From an uncultured Chloroflexia bacterium (lineage in GTDB: Bacteria > Chloroflexota > Limnocylindria > Limnocylindrales > CSP1-4), in the NCBI GenBank assembly GCA_963832105.1, contig CAWHSS010000003.1, positions 50,046-114,045 on the forward strand: a stretch of DNA of 64,000 nucleotides. The letters are read 5' to 3'. The position numbers and the translations under genes were made by a program. This document shows positions 225-62,895 of the stretch, one piece after another. Within the stretch, counting starts at the first letter, position 1. The number at the start of each line of letters is the position of its first letter. A model generated the notes under the pieces. It had not been told where the DNA came from. It made no database searches and was given only the letters and a program-made list of their open reading frames with translations.

Positions 225-400
225 TTCGCGGTTGGTCCGGCTGGCGGACCAACGGGCGAACGACATCCGCTGAATTGGTCGATTTGGGCCGGCCAACCGC
301 CGTGTGGTCCGGCTAGCGGACCAACGGGCGAACGACCCGCTGAATTCGGCCGATTTGGGCCCCGCCGACCGCCGCTTGGTCCGGCTAGCGGACCACGAAA
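225..400. repeat. About 2.3 tandem copies of a 71-bp unit, each carrying an 8-bp stem hairpin (TTGGTCCG-GCTAG-CGGACCAA)
   Basis: Direct read: ggtccggctggcggaccaacgggcgaacgacatccgctgaattggtcgatttgggcc is repeated at 233, 304 and 378. The + ORF at 304-540 (VRLADQRANDP...LVRLADH) is just a translation of this repeat. Confidence 0.8.
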
Positions 401-13929: not shown

Positions 13930-14714
13930 CTACTTCGTGTAGGCGCCGCCCGGATCCAGCTCTTCGCGGATGAGGCGCAGCTCCTCGTCGGTGGGCGCGG
14001 AGGTGGTCGCGATCGACGTCGGCGACCCGGAGCGGCCAGCCGATCGTCTCCTTGGCCCCGTCGAGCGTCGCGCCCGGGTGGAGCGAGTCGAGGCGCATCT
14101 CGCCGTCCTCGTCGAAGTGGTAGATGCCGAGGTCCGTGACGACGACCGTCGGGCCGCGCCCGAGCCAGCCCTGCTCGCGCCGGATCCGCTCGCTCTGCTC
14201 GGCGCCGCCGAGGTTGCCCGGGCTCGTCCGGAAGTCGATCTTCTCGACGAAGCTCCGGGTCGACTGGCGCATGATCACGAACACCTGGCGGGCGTTGATC
14301 GCGATCTCGCAGGCACCGCCGCTCCCCGGGAGACGCGTCTTCGGGGCGTCGTAGTCGCCGATCACGGTCGTGTTGATGTTGCCGAAGCGGTCGATCTGCG
14401 CCGCGCCGAGGAACCCGACGTCGATGAGGCCGCCCTGGAGGTAGAACGCGAAGAGCTCGAACATGCTCGTCACCGCGGTCGCGCCGGTCACGATCGTCGG
14501 GTCGCCGATGCTCAAGCGGGAGGCGGGCCGGCCGCGCTCCGAAGACCCCGGCCTCGTAGACGAGCTCGAGGTCCGGTGCCACGGTCCGCTTGGCGAGGTT
14601 GACCGCGATGTTCGGCAGGCCGACACCGACGAAACAGACATGCTGGCCGGCGAGCTCGCGCGCGGCCGCGACGATCATCATCTCGGACTGGGTGAAGGTC
14701 GTCGCGTCGTTCAA
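13930..14714 (-). CDS. CoA-transferase subunit B (3-oxoacid/glutaconate CoA-transferase family); at least 2 apparent frameshifts
   Basis: N-terminus TTFTQSEMMIVAAARELAGQHVCFVGVGLPNIAVNLA; middle SMFELFAFYLQGG...GSGGACEIA (ORF 13682-14641); C-terminus ...TDEELRLIREELDPGGAYTK* in a third frame. Confidence 0.7.
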
Positions 14715-14739
14715 CCTGCCCGCTCGTCCGCTGGCGGAC

Positions 14740-14930
14740 CGACGGGCGGGCCGAACGATCGAAGATCGGCCTACATTCGGACGCTCCTCCGCCGCCTCGT
14801 CCAGCCGACGGACGAACCGGCGGATGCGGGCCGAACGTCGTCGGACGACGACTCCTCCTCCGCTGGTTGGTCCGTGCTGGCGGGCCAGCGGGCGCGAGAC
14901 GGCCGACTCATCGGTACTCCCCGTAATCGA
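14740..14930. repeat. two copies of a REP-like hairpin element (same family as 225-400) in the CoA-transferase A/B intergenic spacer
   Basis: gtccgctggcggaccgacgggcgggccgaacgatcgaagatcggcc and ccgctggttggtccgtgctggcgggccagcgggcgcgagacggcc share the ggtccg...gctggcgg...acgggcg..acga core with the 71-bp tandem unit. Confidence 0.45.
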
Positions 14931-15842
14931 CGGACCCGGACGGTGCCGGCGCCGACGGCCGGAGCGAGTCGAGCCGCTCGGTTCCGAGCTTCTTCGCGTA
15001 GTCCGCACGCCCGCCCAGGTCGTAGACCCAGTCCCGCAGCCAGGCCTGGGTCTTCTCCTCGTCTCGGGAGATCGGATCCCAGTCGAGGTAGAAGCGGTTG
15101 TCCCGATCGTACGAGCCCTGGACGTACGAGGGGTGCGCGCCCCACGGCTCCTCGACGACCGCGTCGACGATCAGGCCCGGGATGATCGTCCGGTTAGGGT
15201 CGGCCCGGATCACCGCGTCGGGAACGACCTCCTCGACGACGACGATCACCCGATCGGCCGCGAAGGCCGCTTCCTTCTGGCAGCCGAGCAGGCCCCAGAC
15301 CTGGGTGTCGCCGCTCTCCGACGCGCGCTGGGCGTGGACGATCGTCACGTCCGGGCGGAGCGGCGGCACCGCGTAGACCTTCCCGTCGCCGTACGGCGAA
15401 TCGATCTCGCGGATGAGCGGGTTGACCTTCGGCAGGTCGGACTCGAAGTAGGAGCGGAGCGGGAAGAACGGCAGGTTCGCCGCTCCGGCCGTGTACCGCC
15501 CGACCATCCCGAAGTGGCTGTACTCCTCGACCTCGAGCGCCGCTCGCCCGTGGCGGCGACCGGCTCGGCCTCGATCCGGCGCCGGATCGCGTTCAGTCCG
15601 CCGACGCCCGGATTGCCGAGCCACGAGAAGATCAGCTTCCGGGCGACGCCGCCCGCGACCATCTGGTCGTAGATCACGTCGGGGGTCAGCCGGGCGAGCG
15701 TCAGGTCGCGCTTCCGCTGGCGAATGATCTCGTGACCCGCCGAGAAGCAGATCAGGTGGGTGAACCCCTCGATCGCGACCGTGTCGCCGTCGCGGACGAG
15801 GTCGCGGATCGCGTCCGCCATCGACGCGACTTTGGAAGTCAT
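14908..15842 (-). CDS. CoA-transferase subunit A; apparent frameshift about 15500-15560
   Basis: N-terminus MTSKVASMADAIRDLVRDGDTVAIEGFTHLICFSAGHEIIRQ (ORF 15345-15920); C-terminal half in ORF 14908-15624 (VYAVPPLRPDVTIVHAQRASESGD). Confidence 0.7.
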
Positions 15843-15870
15843 GAGCGCAGTATCGGGGAGCGGCGCAGCC

Positions 15871-17239
15871 TCAACCCGCCGCTTCGACGCCGGTGATCGC
15901 GTGGGCAGCCTCCGCGGCATCGTGGAGCTTGTGATGCTCGCCCGCCACGTCGCCGACGGCCTCGCCGAAGATTCGGAGCGCGGTCGCCATCTCGGCCTCC
16001 GAGACCGTCAGCGCCGGCGACATCCGGACCGACGTCTTGCCACATTCGAGGACGAGGAGGCCGCGCTGGAAGGCGGCCCACTGGACCTCCTCGGCGTGCT
16101 CGGCCGTGTCGAACTCGATCCCGATCATCAGCCCGCGGCCGCGGACGTCAGTGATGAGCCCCGCGAAGCGGCTCCTGAGCTGGCCGAGCCCGGCGAACGC
16201 CTGCTCCCCGCGGACCCGGGCGTTCTCGACGAGGCCGCCCTCGAGGAGGTCGATCGTCGCGAGGGCCGCGGCACACGCCACCGGATTGCCGCCGTACGTC
16301 GAGCCGTGCGCGCCCGGCCCCCACGATTTCGAGCAGGTCGGCCCGACCGATCAGCGCCCCCAGCGGCATCCCCGACGCGATCCCCTTGGCCGACAGCACG
16401 ACGTCCGGCTTCACGTCCCACTGCTCGGCGGCCCACATCGTCCCGGTCCGCCCGGCGCCCGACTGGATCTCGTCGAACACGAGCACGATGCCGTGGCGGT
16501 CGCAGATCTCGCGGAGGCCGGCGAGGAACCCGTCCTCGGGGACGACGTAGCCGCCCTCGCCCTGGATCGGCTCGACGATGATCGCGGCGACCTCGTTCGC
16601 CGGGGCGAGCTTGTCGAACAGGACGTCGTCGAACCAGCGGAGGTCCTCGACGCGCCCGAACGGCGCGTGGAAGACGCCCGGCAGGAGCGGCCCGAACCCG
16701 GCGTGGTACTTCGCCTTGGACGCGGTCAGCGAGACCGAACCGTACGACCGGCCGTGGAACGCGCCGAGGAACGCGACGACGTACGGCCGCTTCGTCGCGT
16801 GGCGGGCGAGCTTGATCGCGGTCTCGACGACCTCCGTCCCGCTGTTGCCGAGATAGACGCGGGCCTTGCCACCGGCGATCGGCGTGATCTCGGCCAGGCG
16901 TCGGCAGACCTCGGGGTAGATCGGCAGGTAGAAGTCGGACGCCGAGAAGTGGATCAGCTCGGCCGCCTGCTCCTTGATCGCGGCCACGACCTGCGGGTGC
17001 GAGTGGCCGGTCGAGTTGACGGCGATGCCGGCGGCGAAGTCGAGGAAGAGGTTGCCGTCGATGTCCTCGATCGTCAGGCCTTCACCGCGGACGGGGACGA
17101 TCGGGTAGGCCCGCGGGAGGCTCGGCGACGTCCACGTCTCGTCGAAGGCGACGTGGGCCCGGGCCTTCGGGCCGGGGAGCTCCGTGATGATGTCGGGAAC
17201 GGGTCGCGATTCGGCAAGTCGTGCGGGAACAGCGGCCAC
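15871..17239 (-). CDS. gabT: 4-aminobutyrate aminotransferase (class III); apparent frameshift about 16280-16330
   Basis: ELPGPKA near the N-terminus; LDFAAGIAVNSTGHSHPQVVAAI and DEIQSGAGRTG...SAKGIASG are close to E. coli and M. tuberculosis GabT. GTG start. C-terminal domain in ORF 15871-16281. Confidence 0.75.
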
Positions 17240-17900
17240 GTGGGCACCTCGAGCGCATAGGAAGTATGCAGACTGGATATTCGATCGGCAGTCTAGCAGA
17301 GGCTCCGACGCGCTCGAGGGCGGTTGCGAGGGTCAGGCCAGGCGACGCCGACGGTTCATCGGCAGCAGCTCCGACACCGAGGCCCGCGAGAAGCCCGAGC
17401 CCGCCGGCAGCGAGGTACGGGACGGGCGAGTTGTCGTCCGATGCCGGCGCGGCGGGCGTGGTCGCTGAGACCGGCGTGATGTCGGCCGCGTCGGCGGTAT
17501 CGGCCGCCCCGGCGGCGACCGGCGCTCCGACGACGACGACGCCGGCCATCCCAGGATGGAGGCTGCACGAGTACGGATAGACGCCCGCGGTCCGGAATCG
17601 GGTCACGTAGCTCGCGCCGACGCCGAGGCTCGCCGTGCCCCACTCGCGATTGCGACCGGTCACGTCATGAGGAGAAACGGACGTATTGAGGAATGTGACC
17701 TCGGCCCCGAGCGGGACGCGCGTCACCGACGGGGCAAACGTGCAGCCGTCGATCTTCACGACCGTCGCCGAGCCCTCCGTCGCGGTCGTCCCTTCACCGC
17801 CATGACAACCACCGCCCGCCAGCGCGACCCCGGCCGCGGCCCAACCAAGAACCAGGATGAATGGAAGGAGCGCGAGAGAGACAGCGATCGTGCGGCGCAT
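17082..17900 (-). CDS. secreted cupredoxin (plastocyanin/azurin-like type-1 copper protein); the 3' part of the ORF is probably read-through
   Basis: Signal peptide; Cu ligands in SPHDVT...YPYSCSLHPGM (His, Cys, His, Met). The last 70 aa are a translation of a low-GC intergenic-looking stretch (17250-17300) and overlap the gabT start, so the true stop is probably near 17300. Confidence 0.55.
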   Translation of the reverse strand: MRRTIAVSLALLPFILVLGWAAAGVALAGGGCHGGEGTTATEGSATVVKIDGCTFAPSVTRVPLGAEVTFLNTSVSPHDVTGRNREWGTASLGVGASYVTRFRTAGVYPYSCSLHPGMAGVVVVGAPVAAGAADTADAADITPVSATTPAAPASDDNSPVPYLAAGGLGLLAGLGVGAAADEPSASPGLTLATALERVGASARLPIEYPVCILPMRSRCPRGRCSRTTCRIATRSRHHHGAPRPEGPGPRRLRRDVDVAEPPAGLPDRPRPR

Positions 17901-17991
17901 CGGGTTGTCCTCCGAGGTTAGACGTTCGGTGTTGATACACCGGCCCCGCTTGAGAGGTTCCCGTTGGCTCGCTCAGCGTCCTGTCACCGCG

Positions 17992-19575
17992 CTAGTCGAC
18001 GACGGTGTGGCTCTGCTCGCGGAGGAACTGGGCTACGTAGTACATCGAGAGGCCGGCCTTGCCCGTTGAGCCCGAGCCCTTCCAGCCGCCGAACGCCTGG
18101 ACGCCCGGCCACGCACCGGTCGTCGCGCCGGCGCGGCGATTCACGTACGTGACGCCGGCCTCGATGTTGTCGAGGAACCGCTGGACCTCGCCGGGATCCT
18201 CGCTGTAGACGCCGGCCGTCAGGCCGTAGACGGAATCGTTCGCGAGGCGAAGTCCCTCGTCGAACGTGTCGACCGCGTGGACGGCGGTGAACGGCGCGAA
18301 GAGCTCGTCGCGGAACAGGCGATGGTCCGCCGGCAGGTCGCCGACGACCGTCGGCTCGACGTAGTAGCCGCGGTCCATCCCGCGGTCGGTCAGCCGCTCG
18401 CCACCGACGAACACCCGGCCGTCCTTGCGGGCATCGGCGACCGCGGCCTGGTGCCGATCGACCGCCTTCTGGTCGACGATCGGGCCGAGCCAGTTCTCGC
18501 GGAGCAGCGGGTCGCCGATCGTGATCGCCTCGGTCTTCTCGACGAGCAACCTGATCAGCTCGTCGTGGGCCGGCTTCTCGACGTAGACCCGCGAGTTGGC
18601 CGAGCACTTCTGCCCGCCGAACCCGAACGCGCTCCGGACGATGCCCTCGGCCGCCTCCTCGAGGTCGGCCGTCCGCGAGACGACCGCCGGGTTCTTGCCG
18701 CCCATCTCGACGATCGTCGGCTTCGGGAAGCGCTTCGAGAACGTCCGATACAGGTCCATCCCGACCTCGTACGAGCCGGTGAAGACGATCCCGTCGATGC
18801 CGTCGTTCTCGCGCAACTCGGCGCCGACGCTGTCGCCCGGGCCCATGACGAGGTTGACGACGCCGTCGGGGATGCCCGCATCGCGGTAGGCCTCGATCGA
18901 GCTTGACGCCCGACATCGGCGCGGCCGAGCTGACGGCTTGAAGACGACGGTGTTGCCGGCCATGAGCGCGGCCGCGGTCGGGCCGGCGGCGAGGGCCATC
19001 GGGAAGTTGAACGGGCTGATGACCGCGAAGACGCCGTGCGGTCGGAGGATCGAACGGGTGTGGACGGCCGCGTCGCCGAGGTTGTCCATCGGGTGGTCGT
19101 AGCCGTCGTTGTCCTCCATCGTCTGGGCGTAGTAGCGGAGCAGGTCGGCCGCCTCCTCGACCTCGCCGAGCGCCTCGAGCCGGTTCTTGCCGACCTCGAT
19201 CGCCATCAGCCCCGCGTACCGCATCTGGCGCTCGCTGATGAGATCGGCGGCCTTGCGAATGAGCTCGAGGCGGTCCTTCCACGGCTTCGCGGCCCAGGCC
19301 GGCTGGGCGCTGCGGGCGGCCTTGACCGCGTCGCGAACGTCCTCGCGGGTCCCGCGGGCGAAGTGCCCGAGGATGAGATTCCGATCGATCGGCGAGGCCA
19401 CGGTCATCTCGCCGTCGCCCGCCCGGTCGCGGCCGTTGACGACGTTCAGGTGGTGCCCACCGAGCTCCTTCTTGGCCTCTTCGAGGCCCGTCTCGTAGAG
19501 CTTGTGCAGCTCCTCGTTGTCGGCCCGAAGCGTGGCGTAGGTGATCTTGAGACGCGGCTTCGATTCGGTGGTCAT
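17992..19575 (-). CDS. rocA: L-glutamate gamma-semialdehyde (1-pyrroline-5-carboxylate) dehydrogenase, RocA/PruA-type aldehyde dehydrogenase
   Basis: Intact 527-aa ORF. AIEVGKNRLEALGEVEEAADLLRYYAQ and C-terminal GAWPGVQAFGGWKGSGSTGKAG align with Bacillus RocA. ALDH catalytic Cys (FGFGGQKCSA) and Glu (EMGGKN) present. Confidence 0.85.
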   Translation of the reverse strand: MTTESKPRLKITYATLRADNEELHKLYETGLEEAKKELGGHHLNVVNGRDRAGDGEMTVASPIDRNLILGHFARGTREDVRDAVKAARSAQPAWAAKPWKDRLELIRKAADLISERQMRYAGLMAIEVGKNRLEALGEVEEAADLLRYYAQTMEDNDGYDHPMDNLGDAAVHTRSILRPHGVFAVISPFNFPMALAAGPTAAALMAGNTVVFKPSARPRRCRASSSIEAYRDAGIPDGVVNLVMGPGDSVGAELRENDGIDGIVFTGSYEVGMDLYRTFSKRFPKPTIVEMGGKNPAVVSRTADLEEAAEGIVRSAFGFGGQKCSANSRVYVEKPAHDELIRLLVEKTEAITIGDPLLRENWLGPIVDQKAVDRHQAAVADARKDGRVFVGGERLTDRGMDRGYYVEPTVVGDLPADHRLFRDELFAPFTAVHAVDTFDEGLRLANDSVYGLTAGVYSEDPGEVQRFLDNIEAGVTYVNRRAGATTGAWPGVQAFGGWKGSGSTGKAGLSMYYVAQFLREQSHTVVD

Positions 19576-19620
19576 CTGGAGGGAACCTCGGTTGGGCGGA
19601 AGGTCTGGGAAATGGGTCGT

Positions 19621-29608: not shown

Positions 29609-30178
29609 CTAGGCCGACAACCTCGCGGATCGCTGGTAGCGCTCCATCAGCTCGGCGATGACCTGGCGCGCTTCGCGCCACTCCTGCTGATCGCCGAAGA
29701 TCTCGGCGTCCTTGCCCCATCGGCCGAGCTGGGCCATGGCCGTGACGATCGCCGAATGCTGGTACGAGCGACGGCGCCCGCCATCGATTGCGCCGGTCAC
29801 GAGGTATCGGCGGACCAGGTCGAACGGCGCCTCCCATCGACCGATCCTGATTCGGTCGCCGATGCGCATCGACTCGAGCAGATCGTCGTCGCCGACCGGG
29901 AACTGGTCGTGCTCCTCCATGTGGGCGACGAGGTCGACCCGACCGAGGTTCGGCCGGTGAGACGGCAATCGTCCGTCGTCGCCGACCGTCTGGTAGCAGC
30001 TCGGGCAGCTCGGCAGCGCCGCGTCGGATCGTGGCTGGTCCCCGAAGGGCAGGCCGCACCGACGGCAGAAGGTGATGTCAGGCGTCGGCGCGGCCGTCCC
30101 GCACTGGAGGCAGACGTTGCCCTGGCTGCCCGATGGCCGACCAGAACCCTGGCCTCCGAGCGAGAACGACAACTTCAC
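29609..30178 (-). CDS. hypothetical protein with a double zinc-ribbon N-terminus and an alpha-helical C-terminal domain
   Basis: CLQCG...FCRRCG and CPSCYQ Cys pairs. GTG start with a GAGAGGAAG RBS. 4-bp overlap with the upstream small gene. Confidence 0.55.
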   Translation of the reverse strand: MKLSFSLGGQGSGRPSGSQGNVCLQCGTAAPTPDITFCRRCGLPFGDQPRSDAALPSCPSCYQTVGDDGRLPSHRPNLGRVDLVAHMEEHDQFPVGDDDLLESMRIGDRIRIGRWEAPFDLVRRYLVTGAIDGGRRRSYQHSAIVTAMAQLGRWGKDAEIFGDQQEWREARQVIAELMERYQRSARLSA

Positions 30179-30582
30179 GAATACTTCCTCTCGGTGGTCA
30201 TGCGGATCAGTCTTGGGGGCTTGGCGTTCGCTCGAGCCTGGGCGGAATTGGCGATCAGCCGCCGAAGCGTGACCAGTCCATCGAGAGCGGCGCCGACCTG
30301 GCCCCGTTCGAGGATCAGGATCGGCAGCGGGTCAGATCGGTGGGAGAGCTGAAGGAGGATCACCGGCAACGATCCGTAGTTGCCGATCGAAGCGCCACCG
30401 AGGTCGTCATACGACCAGGGCTCTCGGGGAACACGCCGGACGAGCGACGGGCCGCCGCAGCGGCAAACGGTGAGCTGGTCGAGGCCGACGAGGACAGTGG
30501 ATCCGGCCGCACCCTGAATTCGGGCAACGACGTTTCCGACGTCCTTGGCGCAGGTACAAATGGAGCTGCCGGCAATTGCCAT
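30175..30582 (-). CDS. small Cys-containing hypothetical protein (135 aa)
   Basis: Protein-like tail of the 968-aa read-through ORF, starting MAIAGSSICTCAKDVGNVVARIQG with a CxC...CRCGG motif. AAGGA RBS 7 bp upstream of the ATG at 30582. Confidence 0.5.
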   Translation of the reverse strand: MAIAGSSICTCAKDVGNVVARIQGAAGSTVLVGLDQLTVCRCGGPSLVRRVPREPWSYDDLGGASIGNYGSLPVILLQLSHRSDPLPILILERGQVGAALDGLVTLRRLIANSAQARANAKPPRLIRMTTERKYS

Positions 30583-30999
30583 GGGTGTCCTTGGGGATGA
30601 GTGCTTGGTCGTAGCCCAACCGTAGGCGACTGGGCTCGAATCCGGCATCACCGCCTCGGGGATTCCCGGTGGCAGAACGTCCCGAAAGCAACTGCGGTGT
30701 CTGTACCAGATGGGAGTTGCGAACCAGCCTAGAGCTGGTCGCCCTCTGGCTCGGTCGAGCGCAGCCAGGTGTGGGCACGCTCCAATACCCCGACCGCTAC
30801 GTTCCGCAGCCGGCGCGAGGCGACGGCACGCCGTCCCGTTGACGGGCGTCGCTGTGGCGAAGCCGGCGGGGGCACGAGTCTGGCGGGGCGCGATCGAGGC
30901 CACGCTCGCGCGGGCGGGTGCGACGGCGGGCAACACCTGGGCACCGGTGATGGCCGACGCCTCCAGCTCCGCGGCGACGACGGCCGCGATCACCGGGGC

Positions 31000-33081
31000 C
31001 GGCCGGACACGATGCGCCGCGAGGTCGACCACTTCGCCCCAGGCGCGAGGTCGGGCCGTCGCGGCGCGCCACTCGTCACCTGCGTTGTGGACGACCCGGC
31101 GGCCATCGAAGAGCTCGTCGAACGTCTCGCCGTCGACCCGCTCGTGCTCGACGAGGTACGCGGCGAGCCGGCGGAGCGTGTCCATGTTGTCGATCAGCGT
31201 CCGACAGGCCTCGGCGTACGCGCCGTCGAGGATCGAGCGGATCGCGCGCGTGGCCGCGGCCTGGACGTCCGACGGCAGGCTTCGGCCGCCTGGCAGCGGG
31301 ACGAGGAACGACAGGCTGCCGCGGCCGGAGACGCCGTGATCGCTGGCCTCGGGGTCGCGGCCCATGCCCCATCGGGTGACCATCGCGACGGCGATCTTGT
31401 TCGCCTCCTCGAAGTCGTTCGAGGCGCCGCCCGTGACCTCGTGGAAGAGGAGCTCCTCGGCCGCCCGGCCGCCCATCAGCGCGACGAGCCGAGCCCGCAG
31501 GTCGGACTCGGACGGCAGGTCGTTGTCCTCCTGGCTGCTGACGGTGACGCCGAGCGCCTCGCCGTGGGCGAAGAGCGAGATCTCCTCGACTCGGCGCTTG
31601 TCGCCGTGGACCTTGCCGCAGATGGCGTGACCGACTTCGTGGGCCGCGATGATCGACCGCTCGCGCTCGTCCATCGACCGCCGGCGGGACGTCCCGACGG
31701 CGACCTTGAGCCAGCCGCCGTGGAGGTCCTCGGTCTGGATCGAGCTCGCCGGATCGGCGGGCCGCGAGGATCGCGGCCTCGTTGAGCAGGTCGGCGAGCA
31801 TGCGCCCCGGAGAAGCCGTAGGTCTTGCGGGCGAGTGTCCTCGAGGTCGATCGTCGGGGCCAGCGGCTTGTTCCGGGCGTGGACCGCGAGGATCGCCTTG
31901 CGGCCGGCGACGTCGGGCAGGCCGACGTGGATCTTGCGGTTGAAGCGGCCCGGTCGGAGGACGGCCGGGTCGAGGATGTCGAGCCGGTTCGTCGCGGCGA
32001 TGACGATGACGTCGTCGGTCGTCCCGAAGCCGTCGAGCTCGACGAGCAGCTGGTTGAGCGTCTGCTCGCGCTCCTCGTGGCTGTTCGGGCCGCCGCGGGC
32101 CTTGCCGATGGCGTCGAACTCGTCGAAGAAGATGACGCCGCGGCCGAGCTTCCGGGCCTGCGCGAACAGGTCGCGGACGCGCCGCGCGCCGACGCCGACG
32201 TACTTCTCGACGAACTCGGAGCCCGAGGCGTGGTGGAACGGCACGCCGGCCTCGGCCGCGACGGCGCGGGCGAGCATCGTCTTGCCGGTGCCGGGCGGGC
32301 CGTAGAGCATGATGCCGCGCGGAATGCGCGCGCCCAGCTTGTGGAACCGCTCCGGTGACTTGAGGAACTCGATCGTCTCGGTCAGCTCGAGCTTCGCTTC
32401 GTCGCAGCCGGCGACGTCGTCGAGGCGGACCGCGACGATGAGCGGGTCCACGACGGGCGGCTCGACCGAGCCGTCCGCGCGTGGGGCCCCCGGCATGATC
32501 GTCCGGAATGACGAGCTCTCGCGCTGCCCCGAGCCGTTCCGGCGGGACATCCGCAGGACGAGCATGAGCGTGATCACCAGGATCCCGACCGGCAGGACGA
32601 TGCCCATGATGTTCAGGCCCGACTCGGTCCGAGGCCTGCTGACCTCGAGGGCCTCGGTCGTCAGGAGATTGCTGTAGCCGAGCGCGGTGAGCGCCGAGAC
32701 CGCTTCTCCGGCGGTGACCGTCAGGTCGACGGGAATGACCTGGCCGTCCTTCGTCCGGACGAGAAGCGTCTGGGTCGGCTGGCCGGAAGGCCCGGTCGCC
32801 TCGGCGGCGGTGATCGCCGTGACCTCGCCTGCCTCGACGTGCCGCTGGAGCTCGACGAGCGACCAACCCTCGACGAACGTGAACGTCGGCGCGGTGACGG
32901 TCGAGCCCGCGGGCGCGGGCGGGTTGGCGCGGAGCAGGTACAGGGACGTCACGGCGGCGATGGCGAGAACTGCGGCGACGGTCACGACGGCGGCTGCCCA
33001 TGGCCGGCGGCGGACCGCGGCGGTACCGCGTACCGAGAGTCGACGGAGGTTGCGCTGGAGGCGGCGAGGATCGGGGGTCAT
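31000..33081 (-). CDS. ftsH: ATP-dependent zinc metalloprotease FtsH; at least 1 apparent frameshift near 31900 and an uncertain 3' end
   Basis: Two N-terminal TM helices; AAA+ Walker A GPPGTGKT, Walker B VIFFDEFDA, SRH ATNRLDILDPAVLRPGRF; HEVGH zinc motif. LADLLNEAAILAARR is in the alternate frame (ORF 31076-33001). No in-frame stop before 30175, so the real terminus is presumably reached through another shift. Confidence 0.8.
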
Positions 33082-33318
33082 GGCATCGCGGTGTGACGGA
33101 TCAGAAGCTTCCCGATCGTGGCCGATCCCTGGCCCGCTCGAACATCACCCGATTGGGTGATGACCCCTGCGTCATCTGACGGATATGCGCAGGAGCTCGC
33201 GCGCTTCGGCAACCGGCCAAGACGTTTGGCGGAGGATACTCCGAGTCCCCCGGGGCTTGCACAGCGCGGCGGTTGCGGGACGGATTCCGTTGAGGAACCG
33301 CGGATCAGAAAAGGGGGG

Positions 33319-33394
33319 TGGAGCGGGAGACGAGGTTCGAACTCGCGACATTCAGCTTGGAAGGCTGACGCTCTGCCAACTGAGCTACTCCCGC
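33319..33394 (-). tRNA. tRNA-Gly (anticodon TCC), 76 nt with encoded CCA
   Basis: Minus strand reads GCGGGAGTAGCTCAGTTGGCAGAGCGTCAGCCTTCCAAGCTGAATGTCGCGAGTTCGAACCTCGTCTCCCGCTCCA. It has a 7-bp acceptor stem, D-loop AGCTCAGTTGG, anticodon loop CTTCCAA and T-loop GTTCGAA. Confidence 0.9.
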
Positions 33395-60200: not shown

Positions 60201-60433
60201 TCGACGACCACGAGATCCGGGCGTTCCTCGGTGTCAACACGTGGGAAGGCGTCGAGTGGTTCTCGAAGGAATCCTTCGAGACGCTGCTTGACCTGGCGGT
60301 CGCGCTCGATCGGGCCGACGGCGTCAGCCGGACCTCACCCGCGGTCGGCAAACTGCGGCGCGCGGCGGAGGCGGCCGGGTATCGGGTCGATCAGTTCCTC
60401 GCCGCGCTCCAGGCGCCGGCGAAAGCCGTCTAA
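57271..60433 (+). CDS. large (about 1050 aa) GH13 alpha-amylase-family protein with a roughly 300-aa N-terminal extension; at least 5 apparent frameshifts
   Basis: ELDQLARRGITGLWLIGLWERS (barrel beta-2-like); DMVPNHMG (region I, the TreY-like VPNHM form); AEAFWMMEGYF; GHGQIEGFGEKYGMEFRRARLDE; long C-terminal helical domain ending ...AALQAPAKAV*. Confidence 0.75.
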
Positions 60434-60485
60434 GCCGCCGGCAAGAAGGCACCGCGGCCTCGCTCGTCCTGACCTGTCGTCGGCC

Positions 60486-62284
60486 TCAGTCGCCGAGGAC
60501 AAGCCGCCGCAGGATCGGGATCGGTGGCGTGCCGTGGGCGAGGACGGATTCGAGGTGCTCCCGGTAGACGAAGCCGGGAGTCTCGCCGAGACCGCCGACG
60601 ACCCGCGGTTCGGGCACCGCGTCGGCGCCGCGCGCATCGCCCGACGCGGCGGCCAGCCGGCGCCGCCGTTCGCGCTCGAGATCCCACATCGCCATCGAGC
60701 CGACGAAGTACGTGCAGAGCTGGGTCGACGACAGCCGCGCGCGGTCGTACTTCGCCCGCGCCTCGGCCTCCTCCTGGAAGCCGCCGTCGACCATCAGCGA
60801 GACCGCCTCGTCCTCGGTCATGCCGGCCGTGTGGATCCCGACGTCGATCATCGCGTTCGTGACCGCCCGGAGGTAGAACTTCCAATGGGTCAGCAGCAGC
60901 GCCGGGTCGTCCGCCCCGTAGCCCTGCGTCGAGCATGACCTGCGTGACGTACACGGCCCAGCCCTCGGCGAACACGCCGCTGCCGAAGATGCTCCGCGCG
61001 ATCGAGGGGCAGCGGTTCGCGTAGACGCCCTGGAGGTAGTGGCCGGGCACCGCCTCGTGAATCGTCAGCAGCCGGAGCATCCGGTCGTTGTCCTCGCGGA
61101 GATACGACTCGGCCTGCTCGGCGGACCAATCGTCGGGGATCGGCGTCACGGAGAAGAACGTCTTCTGGCCCTTGTCGAGCGGTCCGGGCGAGTCGAGCAT
61201 CGCGCCACCGAACGACCGCATGAAAACCGGCGTCCAACGGATCTCGAGCGGGTCGTCGGCCAGGCCGATGAGATCGCGGTCCCGGCAGAACGCCTCGATC
61301 CGACCGAGCTCCTCGCGGCAGAAGTCGAGGATCGCCTCGCGCTCCGGATGCTCGAGGGCGATCGCGTCGAGCACCTCCCGGACCGCCGCCGAGTCGTCGT
61401 CCGGCACCGGGCCGTCCTTGAGCCACTGCGGCCCGATCTCGCGGGCGATCCGGACCATCTCGGCCCGGACCGCGGCGAACTCGGCGGCCGACTGCTTCGA
61501 GACGGAGTCGATCGTCACCTCGTCCGATCCGAACGTGTGGAACAGCTTCCGGGCGAACAGGTCGGCGCCCAGCCGGCCCTCCCCGTCCGAACCGGGCAGA
61601 ACCCCTTCTCGGAGATGGCGTTCGAACCCGGCGAGGGCCGTCCTCGCGACCTCTGCGGCCGCCCTGAGACGTGGGGCGACGGCGGCGACGGCCGAGTCGG
61701 TCGGCTCCGCGGCGGCCGCCGCGCCAAGCGCGTCGTCGATGAGCTCGGGGATGCCGGGGAGCTGGGCGATCGCCTTCTCCGTGTGGAATCGAGCCACCGG
61801 CCGGCCGTCGTGGCCGACGAGCGCGTCGCGCGCGGCGGACAGGACGAGCGGCATTCCCTCCAGGCGCCCGGCCACCGACGCGAGGCGATCGGCGAGCGGC
61901 GCAAAGTCGCGGGCGATCAGCGGGAAGATGCCGTCGCCGAGCAGATAGATCCAGTCGAGCGGGTTCCAGCGGTCCTCCCGCAGGTCCACCTCGCTGAACC
62001 GGTGGGCGTCGAGCACGGCCAGCAGGAGGTCCCGGTCGGCCCGCTCGTCGGGCGTCACCTGGGCTTCGTCGGACGCCTTGAGCTCCTCGCTCCAGCGGTC
62101 GTAGAAGGCCAGCCGCGCCTCTCGGCCGCCTTCGGTCAGGTCGGGCCAGCGGCCGTCGTGGTCGTGCATGCCGGCAGCCGTCGCGGCCAGCGGCAGGAGG
62201 CTGAAGTACTCGGCGAGAAACGCGTCGACGCGTGCGGAGAAGTCGGACACGGTGCCTCCGTCGAACATTGCGGGTGGAGGCCAT
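60486..62284 (-). CDS. DUF885 family protein (putative metallopeptidase-like); apparent frameshift about 60880
   Basis: HEAVPGHYLQ is the DUF885 signature. C-terminal 120 aa in ORF 60486-60851. Confidence 0.75.
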
Positions 62285-62298
62285 CGTACGATCCCGCG

Positions 62299-62895
62299 GT
62301 GACCGACGCCCTCCGCATCGAACCCGTGACCCTCGAGGGCCGCATCGTCCGGCTCGAGCCGCTGACGCTCGACCACATCCCGGGCCTCGCCGAGGTCGGG
62401 CTCGACGAGGAGATCTGGCGCTGGACGCTAGCCCGGCCGCGGTCGGAGGCGGACCTGCGCGAGTGGGCCGCCTCGACGATCGCGGCCCGCGACGCCGGCA
62501 CGGAGCTGCCGTTCGCCACGATCGACGCGGCGACGGGCCGCCCGATCGGCTCCAGCCGGTACCTGAACATCGTCATGGAGCACCGCCGGCTGGAGATCGG
62601 CTGGACGTGGGTGGCGCCGCCCTGGCAACGAACCGGCGCCAATCGAGAAGCGAAGCTGCTGATGCTGGAGCACGCGTTCGATCGCCTCGGCTGCCGGCGG
62701 GTCGAGTTCAAGACCGACTCGAACAACGAGAAGTCGCGCACGGCGCTGCTGGGCATCGGCGCTGCGTTCGAGGGCATCTTCCGCAATCACATGGTCACGC
62801 CCGGCGACGGGACGCGGCACTCCGCCTGGTACAGCGTGATCGACGAGGAGTGGCCGGCCGTTCGAGCGAGGCTCGAGGCGTCTCTCGGGCGCTGA
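62299..62895 (+). CDS. GNAT family N-acetyltransferase (RimJ/RimL-like)
   Basis: Tail of ORF 61039-62895, from a GTG start: IVRLEPLTLDH...YLNIVMEHRRLEIGWTWVAPPWQRTGANREAKLLMLEHAFDRLGCRRVEF is an acetyl-CoA-binding core. Confidence 0.75.
   Translation: MTDALRIEPVTLEGRIVRLEPLTLDHIPGLAEVGLDEEIWRWTLARPRSEADLREWAASTIAARDAGTELPFATIDAATGRPIGSSRYLNIVMEHRRLEIGWTWVAPPWQRTGANREAKLLMLEHAFDRLGCRRVEFKTDSNNEKSRTALLGIGAAFEGIFRNHMVTPGDGTRHSAWYSVIDEEWPAVRARLEASLGR

Follow-up and report, generated by a model that had tools for sequence, protein, structure and literature searches.

A family of regularly spaced palindromic repeat arrays dispersed between genes of uncultured Chloroflexota

We examined a 64,000-nucleotide stretch of genomic DNA from an uncultured Chloroflexia bacterium (contig CAWHSS010000003.1, positions 50,046 to 114,045; hereafter the window) and found that a tandem hairpin array near its start, at positions 233 to 395, belongs to a family of palindromic repeat arrays dispersed between the genes of high-GC Chloroflexota. 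The arrays are built on a 19-bp core, most often present in three copies exactly 72 bp apart, and they hold their places in related genomes while the number of cores changes. As far as sequence can tell, this is an element of a known kind, the dispersed intergenic palindromic repeat array, in an unusually regular form; in the literature that we searched, neither the core sequence nor repeats of Limnocylindria were found described. We tentatively favor the explanation—at a rough probability of 0.45—that these are DNA-level elements of the type of repetitive extragenic palindromes (REPs), bacterial interspersed mosaic elements (BIMEs) and Neisseria intergenic mosaic elements (NIMEs), in which an array of palindromes would be read by a putative protein. 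An earlier, sequence-only reading of the window had proposed an intergenic hairpin family of the REP/BOX type, and as a general class this proposal holds, the family being dispersed at at least 46 loci in at least 12 metagenome-assembled genomes (MAGs).

The array is the one outstanding tandem repeat of the window (period 72, 2.3 copies, 89% matches and a score of 250 in Tandem Repeats Finder), and a pattern search places the exact hairpin GGTCCG-N5-CGGACC at 234, 306, and 378, which bears out the tandem hairpin array reported earlier at 225 to 400. Its layout is b'-H1-segment 1-H2-segment 2-H3, with three TGGTCCG-GCTNG-CGGACCA hairpins exactly 72 bp apart on the + strand: H1 (TGGTCCG-GCTGG-CGGACCA, 233 to 251), H2 (TGGTCCG-GCTAG-CGGACCA, 305 to 323), and H3 (identical to H2, 377 to 395), each an exact core. 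Between them lie two 53-nt spacer segments, at 252 to 304 (+; from the Tandem Repeats Finder unit) and at 324 to 376 (+; from Tandem Repeats Finder, BLAST, and profile matches). The earlier description of a 71-bp unit in 2.3 copies with an 8-bp stem needs adjusting: the copy number stands, but the period is 72 bp and the unit of the family is usually a triplet phased at that distance rather than a free tandem unit; likewise, the stem shared by all three copies has 7 bp, with an extra T-A pair making it 8 bp in copies 1 and 3. In this window of 70.2% G+C, a 32-nt core-plus-tail motif occurs twice, with 0.00 occurrences expected from shuffles, and a profile of 43 repeat units from other genomes—built with the window left out and searched over the 64 kb—matches 233 to 323 at E = 3e-16 and 305 to 395 at E = 2e-17. 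Both segments open with ACGGGCGAACGA; the middle of segment 1 is a GAATTGG/GATTTGGGCC sub-repeat region, its end is C-rich, and its alignment to 53-nt segments at other loci needs no gaps. H3 is not followed by the ACGGGCG tail, which is absent from the terminal cores in most arrays of the family. Ahead of H1 stands a b'-like 5' palindromic extension, CCGTTCGCGGT (222 to 232, +), which pairs with 252 to 262 (ACGGGCGAACG), and the same C-rich 5' extension precedes cores across the whole family. Because b' is complementary to the segment tail, H1 can lengthen to a 16-bp interrupted stem; the fold of 221 to 268 (b', H1, and tail) reaches -29.4 kcal/mol (z = -4.5), and the bare H1 core -11.7 kcal/mol (z = -3.4).

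The same architecture recurs far beyond the window. With TGGTCCGGCTNGCGGACCA as the pattern, a scan covering one genome per species gave at least 117 stretches, all counts from it being lower bounds, and located the core at at least 46 loci in at least 12 high-GC Chloroflexota MAGs (five Microflora Danica "uncultured Chloroflexia" bins, OTE_51, MGR_bin115, MDV bin47, BP_600, and three Ca. Limnocylindrales bins). Among the matches listed, the closest relatives are MAGs labeled "uncultured Chloroflexia" or Ca. Limnocylindrales, and an independent scan of metagenome contigs found the core on 31 soil contigs. One MAG holds at least 11 family loci, and the window holds two elements in 64 kb. Clusters of three cores are the mode among the genome matches listed (31 of 56, next to six clusters of two, six of four, and two of five) and also the commonest size on the metagenome contigs (11 of 24 complete clusters). 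Exactly 72 bp is the commonest core spacing in both sets, at 57 of 94 among the genome matches listed and 32 of 42 on the contigs; in the minor classes of ∼51, 61, and 82 bp, the segment has an ∼11-nt GGCCGGAATCG-like sub-repeat 0, 1, and 3 times, respectively. Segments have the general form ACGrGCGrAsGA, then zero to three (usually two) of these sub-repeats, then yTCGTTCGyCCGT. The family core measures 19 bp, or ∼41 bp with its palindromic extension, and in the Chloroflexota it has an invariant stem and a GCT-N-G loop with a free middle base; loop polarity is uniform within every cluster, and the arrays run head-to-tail. Most of ten dispersed triplets combine a middle loop of GCTAC or GCTGC, which makes the stem 8 bp long, with a last core that ends in CGGACCG; these position-specific signatures, common to the ten, indicate that a composite element of ∼180 bp was dispersed, rather than a single unit or an array grown site by site. 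The bases that flank the core (5', CCGT/CGCT; 3', ACGG/ACGA) are mutually complementary and are thus paired sequence, not a tag.

Outside the Chloroflexota, most matches of the genome scan are single coding coincidences. The 19-mer matches in Saccharibacteria (∼30 loci, for example L002, L013, and L017) fall in the RNase HII coding motif DEVGRGPLAGP, some actinomycete matches (L014/L094) encode the dapA peptide LVRLADH, and the only match in a scan of viral contigs (L149, 2960 to 3000) lies in a collagen-like coding repeat, GPTGPAGGPTG; we rejected all three groups as family members, taking them for chance or codon-level coincidences. One exception is found in Actinoplanes sp. NPDC049316 (L031, 6717 to 6911), where six to seven hairpins with the stem TGGTCCG/CGGACCA and variable 4- to 5-nt loops are spaced irregularly, at 23 to 42 bp; since the stem is the same, the core palindrome forms repeat clusters in an actinomycete as well.

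Within the family, it is the core that is selectively conserved. Across nine orthologous pairs, core identity is 91 to 100% in eight and 76% in the most distant (L055-L110), while in the same pairs the segments are 69 to 91% identical (∼78%), the adjacent non-repeat intergenic DNA 40 to 87% (∼68%), and the coding flanks mostly 77 to 92%. With ∼78% identity being close to that of other intergenic DNA in these nine pairs, we rejected selective constraint on the 53-nt segments. No compensatory double substitution was found among more than 150 core copies from at least 12 species, the variants being mostly single mismatches and most often at the terminal pair. RNAalifold can draw nine triplets as one long hairpin with the middle core at its apex, with a covariation term of +0.63 and no two-sided change in any core-stem pair. 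That compensatory changes are absent while the loop centers and segments drift places the constraint on the sequence of the core and not merely on its pairing, a pattern that suggests a protein recognition site and would not be looked for in a generic RNA stem. The conserved asymmetry of the loop, together with the uniform polarity within arrays, further suggests that the putative reader distinguishes the two strands. How the family originally spread is likewise an inference.

The elements have also stayed where they are. Positions 1 to 2535 of the window are 88% identical to L012 and positions 1 to 814 are 85% identical to L049, and the orthologous site of each relative holds the same array of three cores. 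As these are independent MAG assemblies, an assembly artifact or collapse, which the earlier reading had named as a possible refutation, is excluded, and so is a recent insertion. Other orthologous sets retain the element at flank identities of 95%, 85 to 89%, and 77%. Judged by these alignments, the window elements are old, positionally stable, and not recently inserted, and the recent mobility proposed earlier is contradicted by the three cores shared across 85 to 88% identical flanks, by synteny down to 77%, and by the finding that the operon copy described below, on which that proposal had partly rested, is the most decayed. We found no evidence of current transposition in the family loci examined. 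What does change is the number of cores: at one set of orthologous sites L055 has three cores, L065 one (with 95% identical flanks), L108 three, and L110 three; at others L037 has one core versus four in L088, and L024 has four versus three in L078. Paired segments inside an array share species-specific changes, as in L049, which points to homogenization within each array.

The second element of the window illustrates both decay and rearrangement. The earlier reading had noticed two dispersed copies at 14.7 kb in a 170-bp spacer between the CoA-transferase A and B genes. Their relatedness is upheld: BLAST alone is weak here (E = 0.011 and 0.045), but the profile matches 14728 to 14813 (E = 2.7e-5) and 14799 to 14886 (E = 3.8e-5), both in the + orientation, with no further significant match in the 64-kb window beyond these and the 233 to 395 array. 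A weak match at 61120 to 61187 (E = 0.45), inside a DUF885 gene, is probably due to chance. Rather than two copies, however, the matches are the outer hairpins of one degenerate three-hairpin element at 14724 to 14887, with cores at 14724, 14797, and 14868 and spacings of 73 and 71 bp. The first core, H1' (TCGTCCG-CTGG-CGGACCG, 14724 to 14741, +; supported by profile and alignment), is followed by the tail ACGGGCG; the strongly degenerate middle core, H2' (TCGTCCA-GCCGA-CGGACGA, 14797 to 14815, +), has a 5-bp stem left and aligns to the middle cores of L117 and L142; and H3' (TGGTCCG-TGCTGG-CGGGCCA, 14868 to 14887, +) retains its stem through a G-T wobble on the + strand. The whole element is collinear with intact triplets in the same spacer of these two relatives, and with the hairpins partly conserved, chance GC-rich similarity does not account for it. 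The spacer does lie between the two CoA_trans genes, both on the − strand, but is 193 bp long (14715 to 14907), bordered by the stop codon of subunit A (14908 to 14910, −) and the TTG start codon of subunit B (14712 to 14714, −). This operon-spacer copy is the most decayed copy of the family that we found.

Positions 14029 to 19616 of the window share synteny with L117, as do 14059 to 14698 with L142, a contig from soil. The stretch between the genes for CoA-transferase B and A in L117 holds a triplet, a gene of ∼119 aa and a second direct triplet (L117, 6740 to 7110); L142 (1 to 290) is a short contig that ends within the ∼119-aa gene, with the B-side triplet and the gene visible. The gene has no Pfam match and is frameshifted in the L117 assembly. 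In the window, it is missing and a single hybrid triplet remains, its left flank corresponding to the B-side triplet and its right flank to the A-side triplet. This arrangement is what would be expected as the product of recombination between two direct triplets, or of the reverse event, an insertion. A second case of a bracketed gene occurs in L034 (6254 to 7302), where two direct triplets ∼720 bp apart enclose a 220-aa HTH_31 (XRE-like) gene. Persistence at fixed sites, variation in copy number, and the triplet-bounded indel together suggest that what the family undergoes today is recombination between cores.

The 233 to 395 array occupies the whole intergenic gap between two convergent genes. 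On its left, the 3' end of an OsmC-like gene (2 to 187, +; Pfam OsmC, E = 3e-5) has its stop codon 45 nt before H1, and on its right, a gene of the phosphotriesterase (PTE) family (426 to 1094, −; Pfam PTE, E = 1e-50), whose frame is broken further upstream, has its stop codon 30 nt past H3. For the family at large, gene context was called with two crude codon-GC methods, which are noisy and are degraded by frameshifted genes in the window and in the MAGs; by these calls, tandem contexts make up roughly one half and convergent and divergent contexts about a quarter each, with neither convergent nor tandem contexts strongly enriched. A stop codon that faces an element is usually 12 to 95 nt away. 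Element orientation shows no preference relative to flanking transcription (10 versus 12 and 12 versus 10), no correlation with local GC skew (r = 0.00), and none with local gene strand (r = -0.15, p = 0.33). Along Mb-scale contigs (CAWBHP010000013, CAVSAP010000005/6, CAVRFC010000005, and others; loci L001 to L117), neighboring elements have the same orientation in 15 cases and different orientations in 6, with at most two switches per MAG. This run is marginal (p ∼ 0.04, or ∼0.17 without pairs closer than 15 kb) and may reflect replichore polarity.

We propose that the 19-bp core is the working part of the element, kept constant because a trans-acting protein would read its sequence, in the form of either a duplex palindrome or a hairpin formed by one strand. 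Elements would be inherited vertically for long periods, their copy number (one to five cores) would shift through recombination or slippage between cores, and two elements could serve as substrates for the deletion or insertion of the DNA between them. Secondarily, co-transcribed stem-loops may act as mRNA 3'-end or intercistronic hairpins, an effect that we consider possible by analogy with REPs. Several points weigh against this explanation. No candidate core-binding protein was identified, and the invariance of the core could stem from gene conversion or from the relatively recent spread of a master copy. The asymmetric conserved loop (GCT-N-G, with a flanking G/G mismatch) fits strand-specific hairpin recognition better than a symmetric duplex-binding dimer, and the decay of the window's second element means that not every copy is maintained. 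Furthermore, a period of 72 bp matches seven turns of the helix only approximately, and the number of 11-nt sub-repeats is a mechanical explanation for the 51/61/72/82 series; phasing need not be selected, and the calls of gene context are noisy. A bolder version of the idea, to which we give little credence, is that the triplets are not junk repeats but polar, helically phased landing pads for a Chloroflexota DNA-binding protein or recombinase, that is, chromosome-organizing or recombination sites. Such landing pads would consist of three identical asymmetric sites about seven turns apart, with minor classes (51, 61, and 82 bp) differing by whole turns; the conservation of positions across genera, the long same-direction runs, and the bracketing of cassettes such as the ∼119-aa gene would fit.

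Other explanations place the activity in a transposase or in the RNA. Classical REPs and REP doublets forming hairpins (REPINs) are non-autonomous elements, cut and pasted as single-stranded DNA hairpins by a REP-associated tyrosine transposase (RAYT; an IS200/IS605-type Y1 HUH enzyme), which could be encoded elsewhere in the genome. Short GC-rich hairpins that are dispersed, intergenic, and multicopy are what this predicts, as are the conserved strand asymmetry of the loop, the uniform polarity within arrays, element ends without target-site duplication, and the orientation runs that replication-coupled single-stranded transposition would give. Yet the runs are statistically marginal, the GTAG/CGTC tag is absent beside the stem (cf. 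PMC3733652), REP dimers are overwhelmingly head-head or tail-tail, unlike the head-to-tail arrays here, and positions held down to 77% flank identity are unusual for actively transposing REPs. Nor did the window plus 149 loci (∼1 Mb, including ∼80 family loci) contain an HUH-Y1 motif by regular expression or a tblastn match to IS200 TnpA or Escherichia coli RayT. Membership of the classical REPs is thus not borne out—no tag, head-to-tail order, and no RAYT/IS200 in the window or in the ∼80 family loci examined—and we regard a RAYT elsewhere in the genome as unlikely to account for the family. Selection for the hairpins in RNA, as terminators or as 3'-exonuclease barriers that stabilize mRNA in 3' untranslated or intercistronic regions, would accord with the stable stems of both the bare core and the extended H1, with the usual proximity of a facing stop codon, with the position of the window copy between convergent genes, and with the ability of a palindrome to function in both directions of transcription. 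It does not accord with a stem that is invariant without covariation, with the lack of orientation preference, or with copies in divergent regions and inside operons. The fold tests are no more favorable: the intergenic region as a whole folds only a little better than shuffled sequence, whichever strand is taken (z = -1.7), but the 53-nt segments fold like shuffled controls (mean z = -0.4), chimeric segments fold equally well, and symmetric pairing inside a segment does not exceed that between segments from different loci (10.9 versus 12.0 pairs), results by which we rejected locus-specific compensatory stems and hairpin selection in the segments. Across the window, Rfam 15 returned only a tRNA at gathering threshold; in positions 1 to 700, searched at E up to 10, the best match had E = 0.5, far below gathering scores. 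An intrinsic-terminator search of the same 700 positions found 0 sites, and no T run follows any core; without a U-tract, an intrinsic terminator was rejected. An RNA-level origin of the conservation is therefore, in our judgment, improbable.

Still less probable is a third explanation, in which the arrays are site-specific recombination sites that bound gene cassettes, along the lines of the dRS3/NIME hypothesis and of pdif modules, and a dedicated recombinase moves gene-plus-triplet circles. The triplet-gene-triplet arrangement of the CoA-transferase region in L117 and, in part, L142, set against the single hybrid in the window, invites this view, as do the HTH gene of L034 and the form of the core, with a 7-bp arm, 5 nt with a free central base, and another 7-bp arm. 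But tyrosine recombinases do not typically have a central region of 5 nt, two such cases in ∼80 loci amount to roughly chance proximity, ordinary homologous recombination between direct repeats 160 bp long accounts for the indel just as well, and no recombinase gene was seen near any examined element. Finally, the repeats might be nothing more than local slippage duplication, that is, a variable-number tandem repeat, combined with an accidental resemblance of GC-rich sequence at 14.7 kb, or an artifact of assembly. The presence of only 2.3 copies and the individually weak BLAST matches at 14.7 kb would be in keeping with this, but the recurrence of core and architecture at dozens of loci in at least 12 MAGs and on 31 metagenome contigs, the profile matches at E ∼ 3e-5, the intact orthologous triplets in L117 and L142, and the same array in three independent assemblies refute it, leaving it a negligible chance.

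Searches aimed at other classes of element were likewise negative. None of the 10 aligned elements is flanked by a direct repeat that could be a target-site duplication, and they terminate in short palindromic extensions of their outer cores, on which grounds a miniature inverted-repeat transposable element was rejected. An array of clustered regularly interspaced short palindromic repeats (CRISPR) was rejected because the segments of an array are nearly identical at many loci (89% matches in the window array, 100% in L012), all segments are homologous within and between arrays, and the window has no cas domains, and an integron attC site was rejected on anatomy. The 40 codon-supported open reading frames (ORFs) of the window that match Pfam contain no transposase family, all being ordinary metabolic, transport, or regulatory genes, and no recurrent non-housekeeping gene was found near the elements, the recurrent families being housekeeping orthologues only.

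Some features of the window stand apart from the repeats. Its sole Rfam match is a tRNA gene at 33322 to 33394 (−), which adjoins an FtsH-like gene (30178 to 33144). An ORF at 62840 to 63400 matches Pfam Phage_holin_4_2 (Mycobacterial 4-TMS holin superfamily IV, E = 1e-21) among ordinary metabolic genes, with no other phage genes seen around it. Four genes are split between frames, those of the PTE family (426 to 1371), TetR (1368 to 2058), class-III aminotransferase (15874 to 17332), and DUF885 (60433 to 62427), and the PTE orthologue in L012 is a single ORF; the splits suggest indel errors of long-read assembly or pseudogenes.

Our results provide an uncultured but abundant group of soil bacteria with a REP-like "genomic punctuation" of unusually regular form, whose elements stay put through genus-level divergence while driving copy-number change and gene-sized indels in operons. 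For practical purposes, the 19-mer is a clean clade marker in metagenomes and a likely hot spot for misassembly and frameshifted gene calls. If the core is indeed the site of a dedicated protein, it would offer a handle on chromosome organization and recombination in a phylum with almost no genetics.

Several known systems resemble the family in part. Like a CRISPR mini-array, it combines a partly palindromic repeat at a constant period of ∼72 bp with more variable sequence in between, but here dozens of three-repeat arrays lie in ordinary intergenic regions and are conserved between species. The BOX elements of Streptococcus pneumoniae and the mycobacterial interspersed repetitive units (MIRUs) are modular intergenic elements with variable tandem internal units (boxB, and MIRU units of 46 to 100 bp) that often lie in intercistronic operon spacers, and MIRUs carry small overlapping ORFs; as generally understood, they have no invariant palindrome at a fixed phase, and their sequences are unrelated to ours. 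Closer in kind are the REPs, BIMEs, and REPINs of Enterobacteria and Pseudomonas, which share with the family short GC-rich extragenic palindromes in many copies, often just downstream of genes and sometimes in operons; the possibility of drawing a whole triplet as one long hairpin recalls REPINs in particular. Tagged REPs are 20- to 40-bp palindromes with an unpaired GTAG or CGTC at one end of the stem and an associated RAYT gene that the repeats flank, mostly occurring singly or as inverted dimers (head-head or tail-tail), with head-to-tail order being rare (PMC3733652). The present family differs in being untagged and head-to-tail, in keeping its positions across deep divergence, and in having no RAYT nearby in the ∼1 Mb of loci searched. 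Within the same phylum, the GTAG-23 REPs of Thermomicrobium roseum are GTAG-tagged, inserted in CCGSSCC-N3-4-GGSSCGG palindromes and gathered in large blocks at a few loci (PMC3733652); that genome is GC-rich too and its elements are mostly clustered, but ours are untagged and scattered as small triplets.

The known systems closest in architecture are the NIMEs. There, a dRS3 core of ∼20 bp, with short inverted repeats at its ends and a free center, is repeated in direct order, alternating with RS segments of 50 to 150 bp (PMC1797815); here, a 7-5-7 core with a free central base alternates with 53-nt segments in direct arrays. NIME arrays are syntenic between related genomes with a variable number of repeats, can flank genes, and have been proposed as recombinase sites (PMC1797815), and we likewise see syntenic arrays that differ in core number as well as genes bracketed by arrays. 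On use of the core by a phage- or IS110-type recombinase for integration or recombination, the present data bear only indirectly, through the triplet-bounded gene indel. The dRS3 core, ATTCCC-N8-GGGAAT, bears a CGTC tag and belongs to the CGTC-1 family (PMC3733652), whereas the TGGTCCG-N5-CGGACCA sequence is unrelated and untagged, so that the two are analogues and not homologues. NIME arrays are, moreover, long and lack regularity, their RS segments falling into more than 100 families of 19 to 214 bp (PMC1797815), while the Chloroflexota arrays draw on one diverged segment family, hold to a fixed 72-bp period, and have three cores as their modal form.

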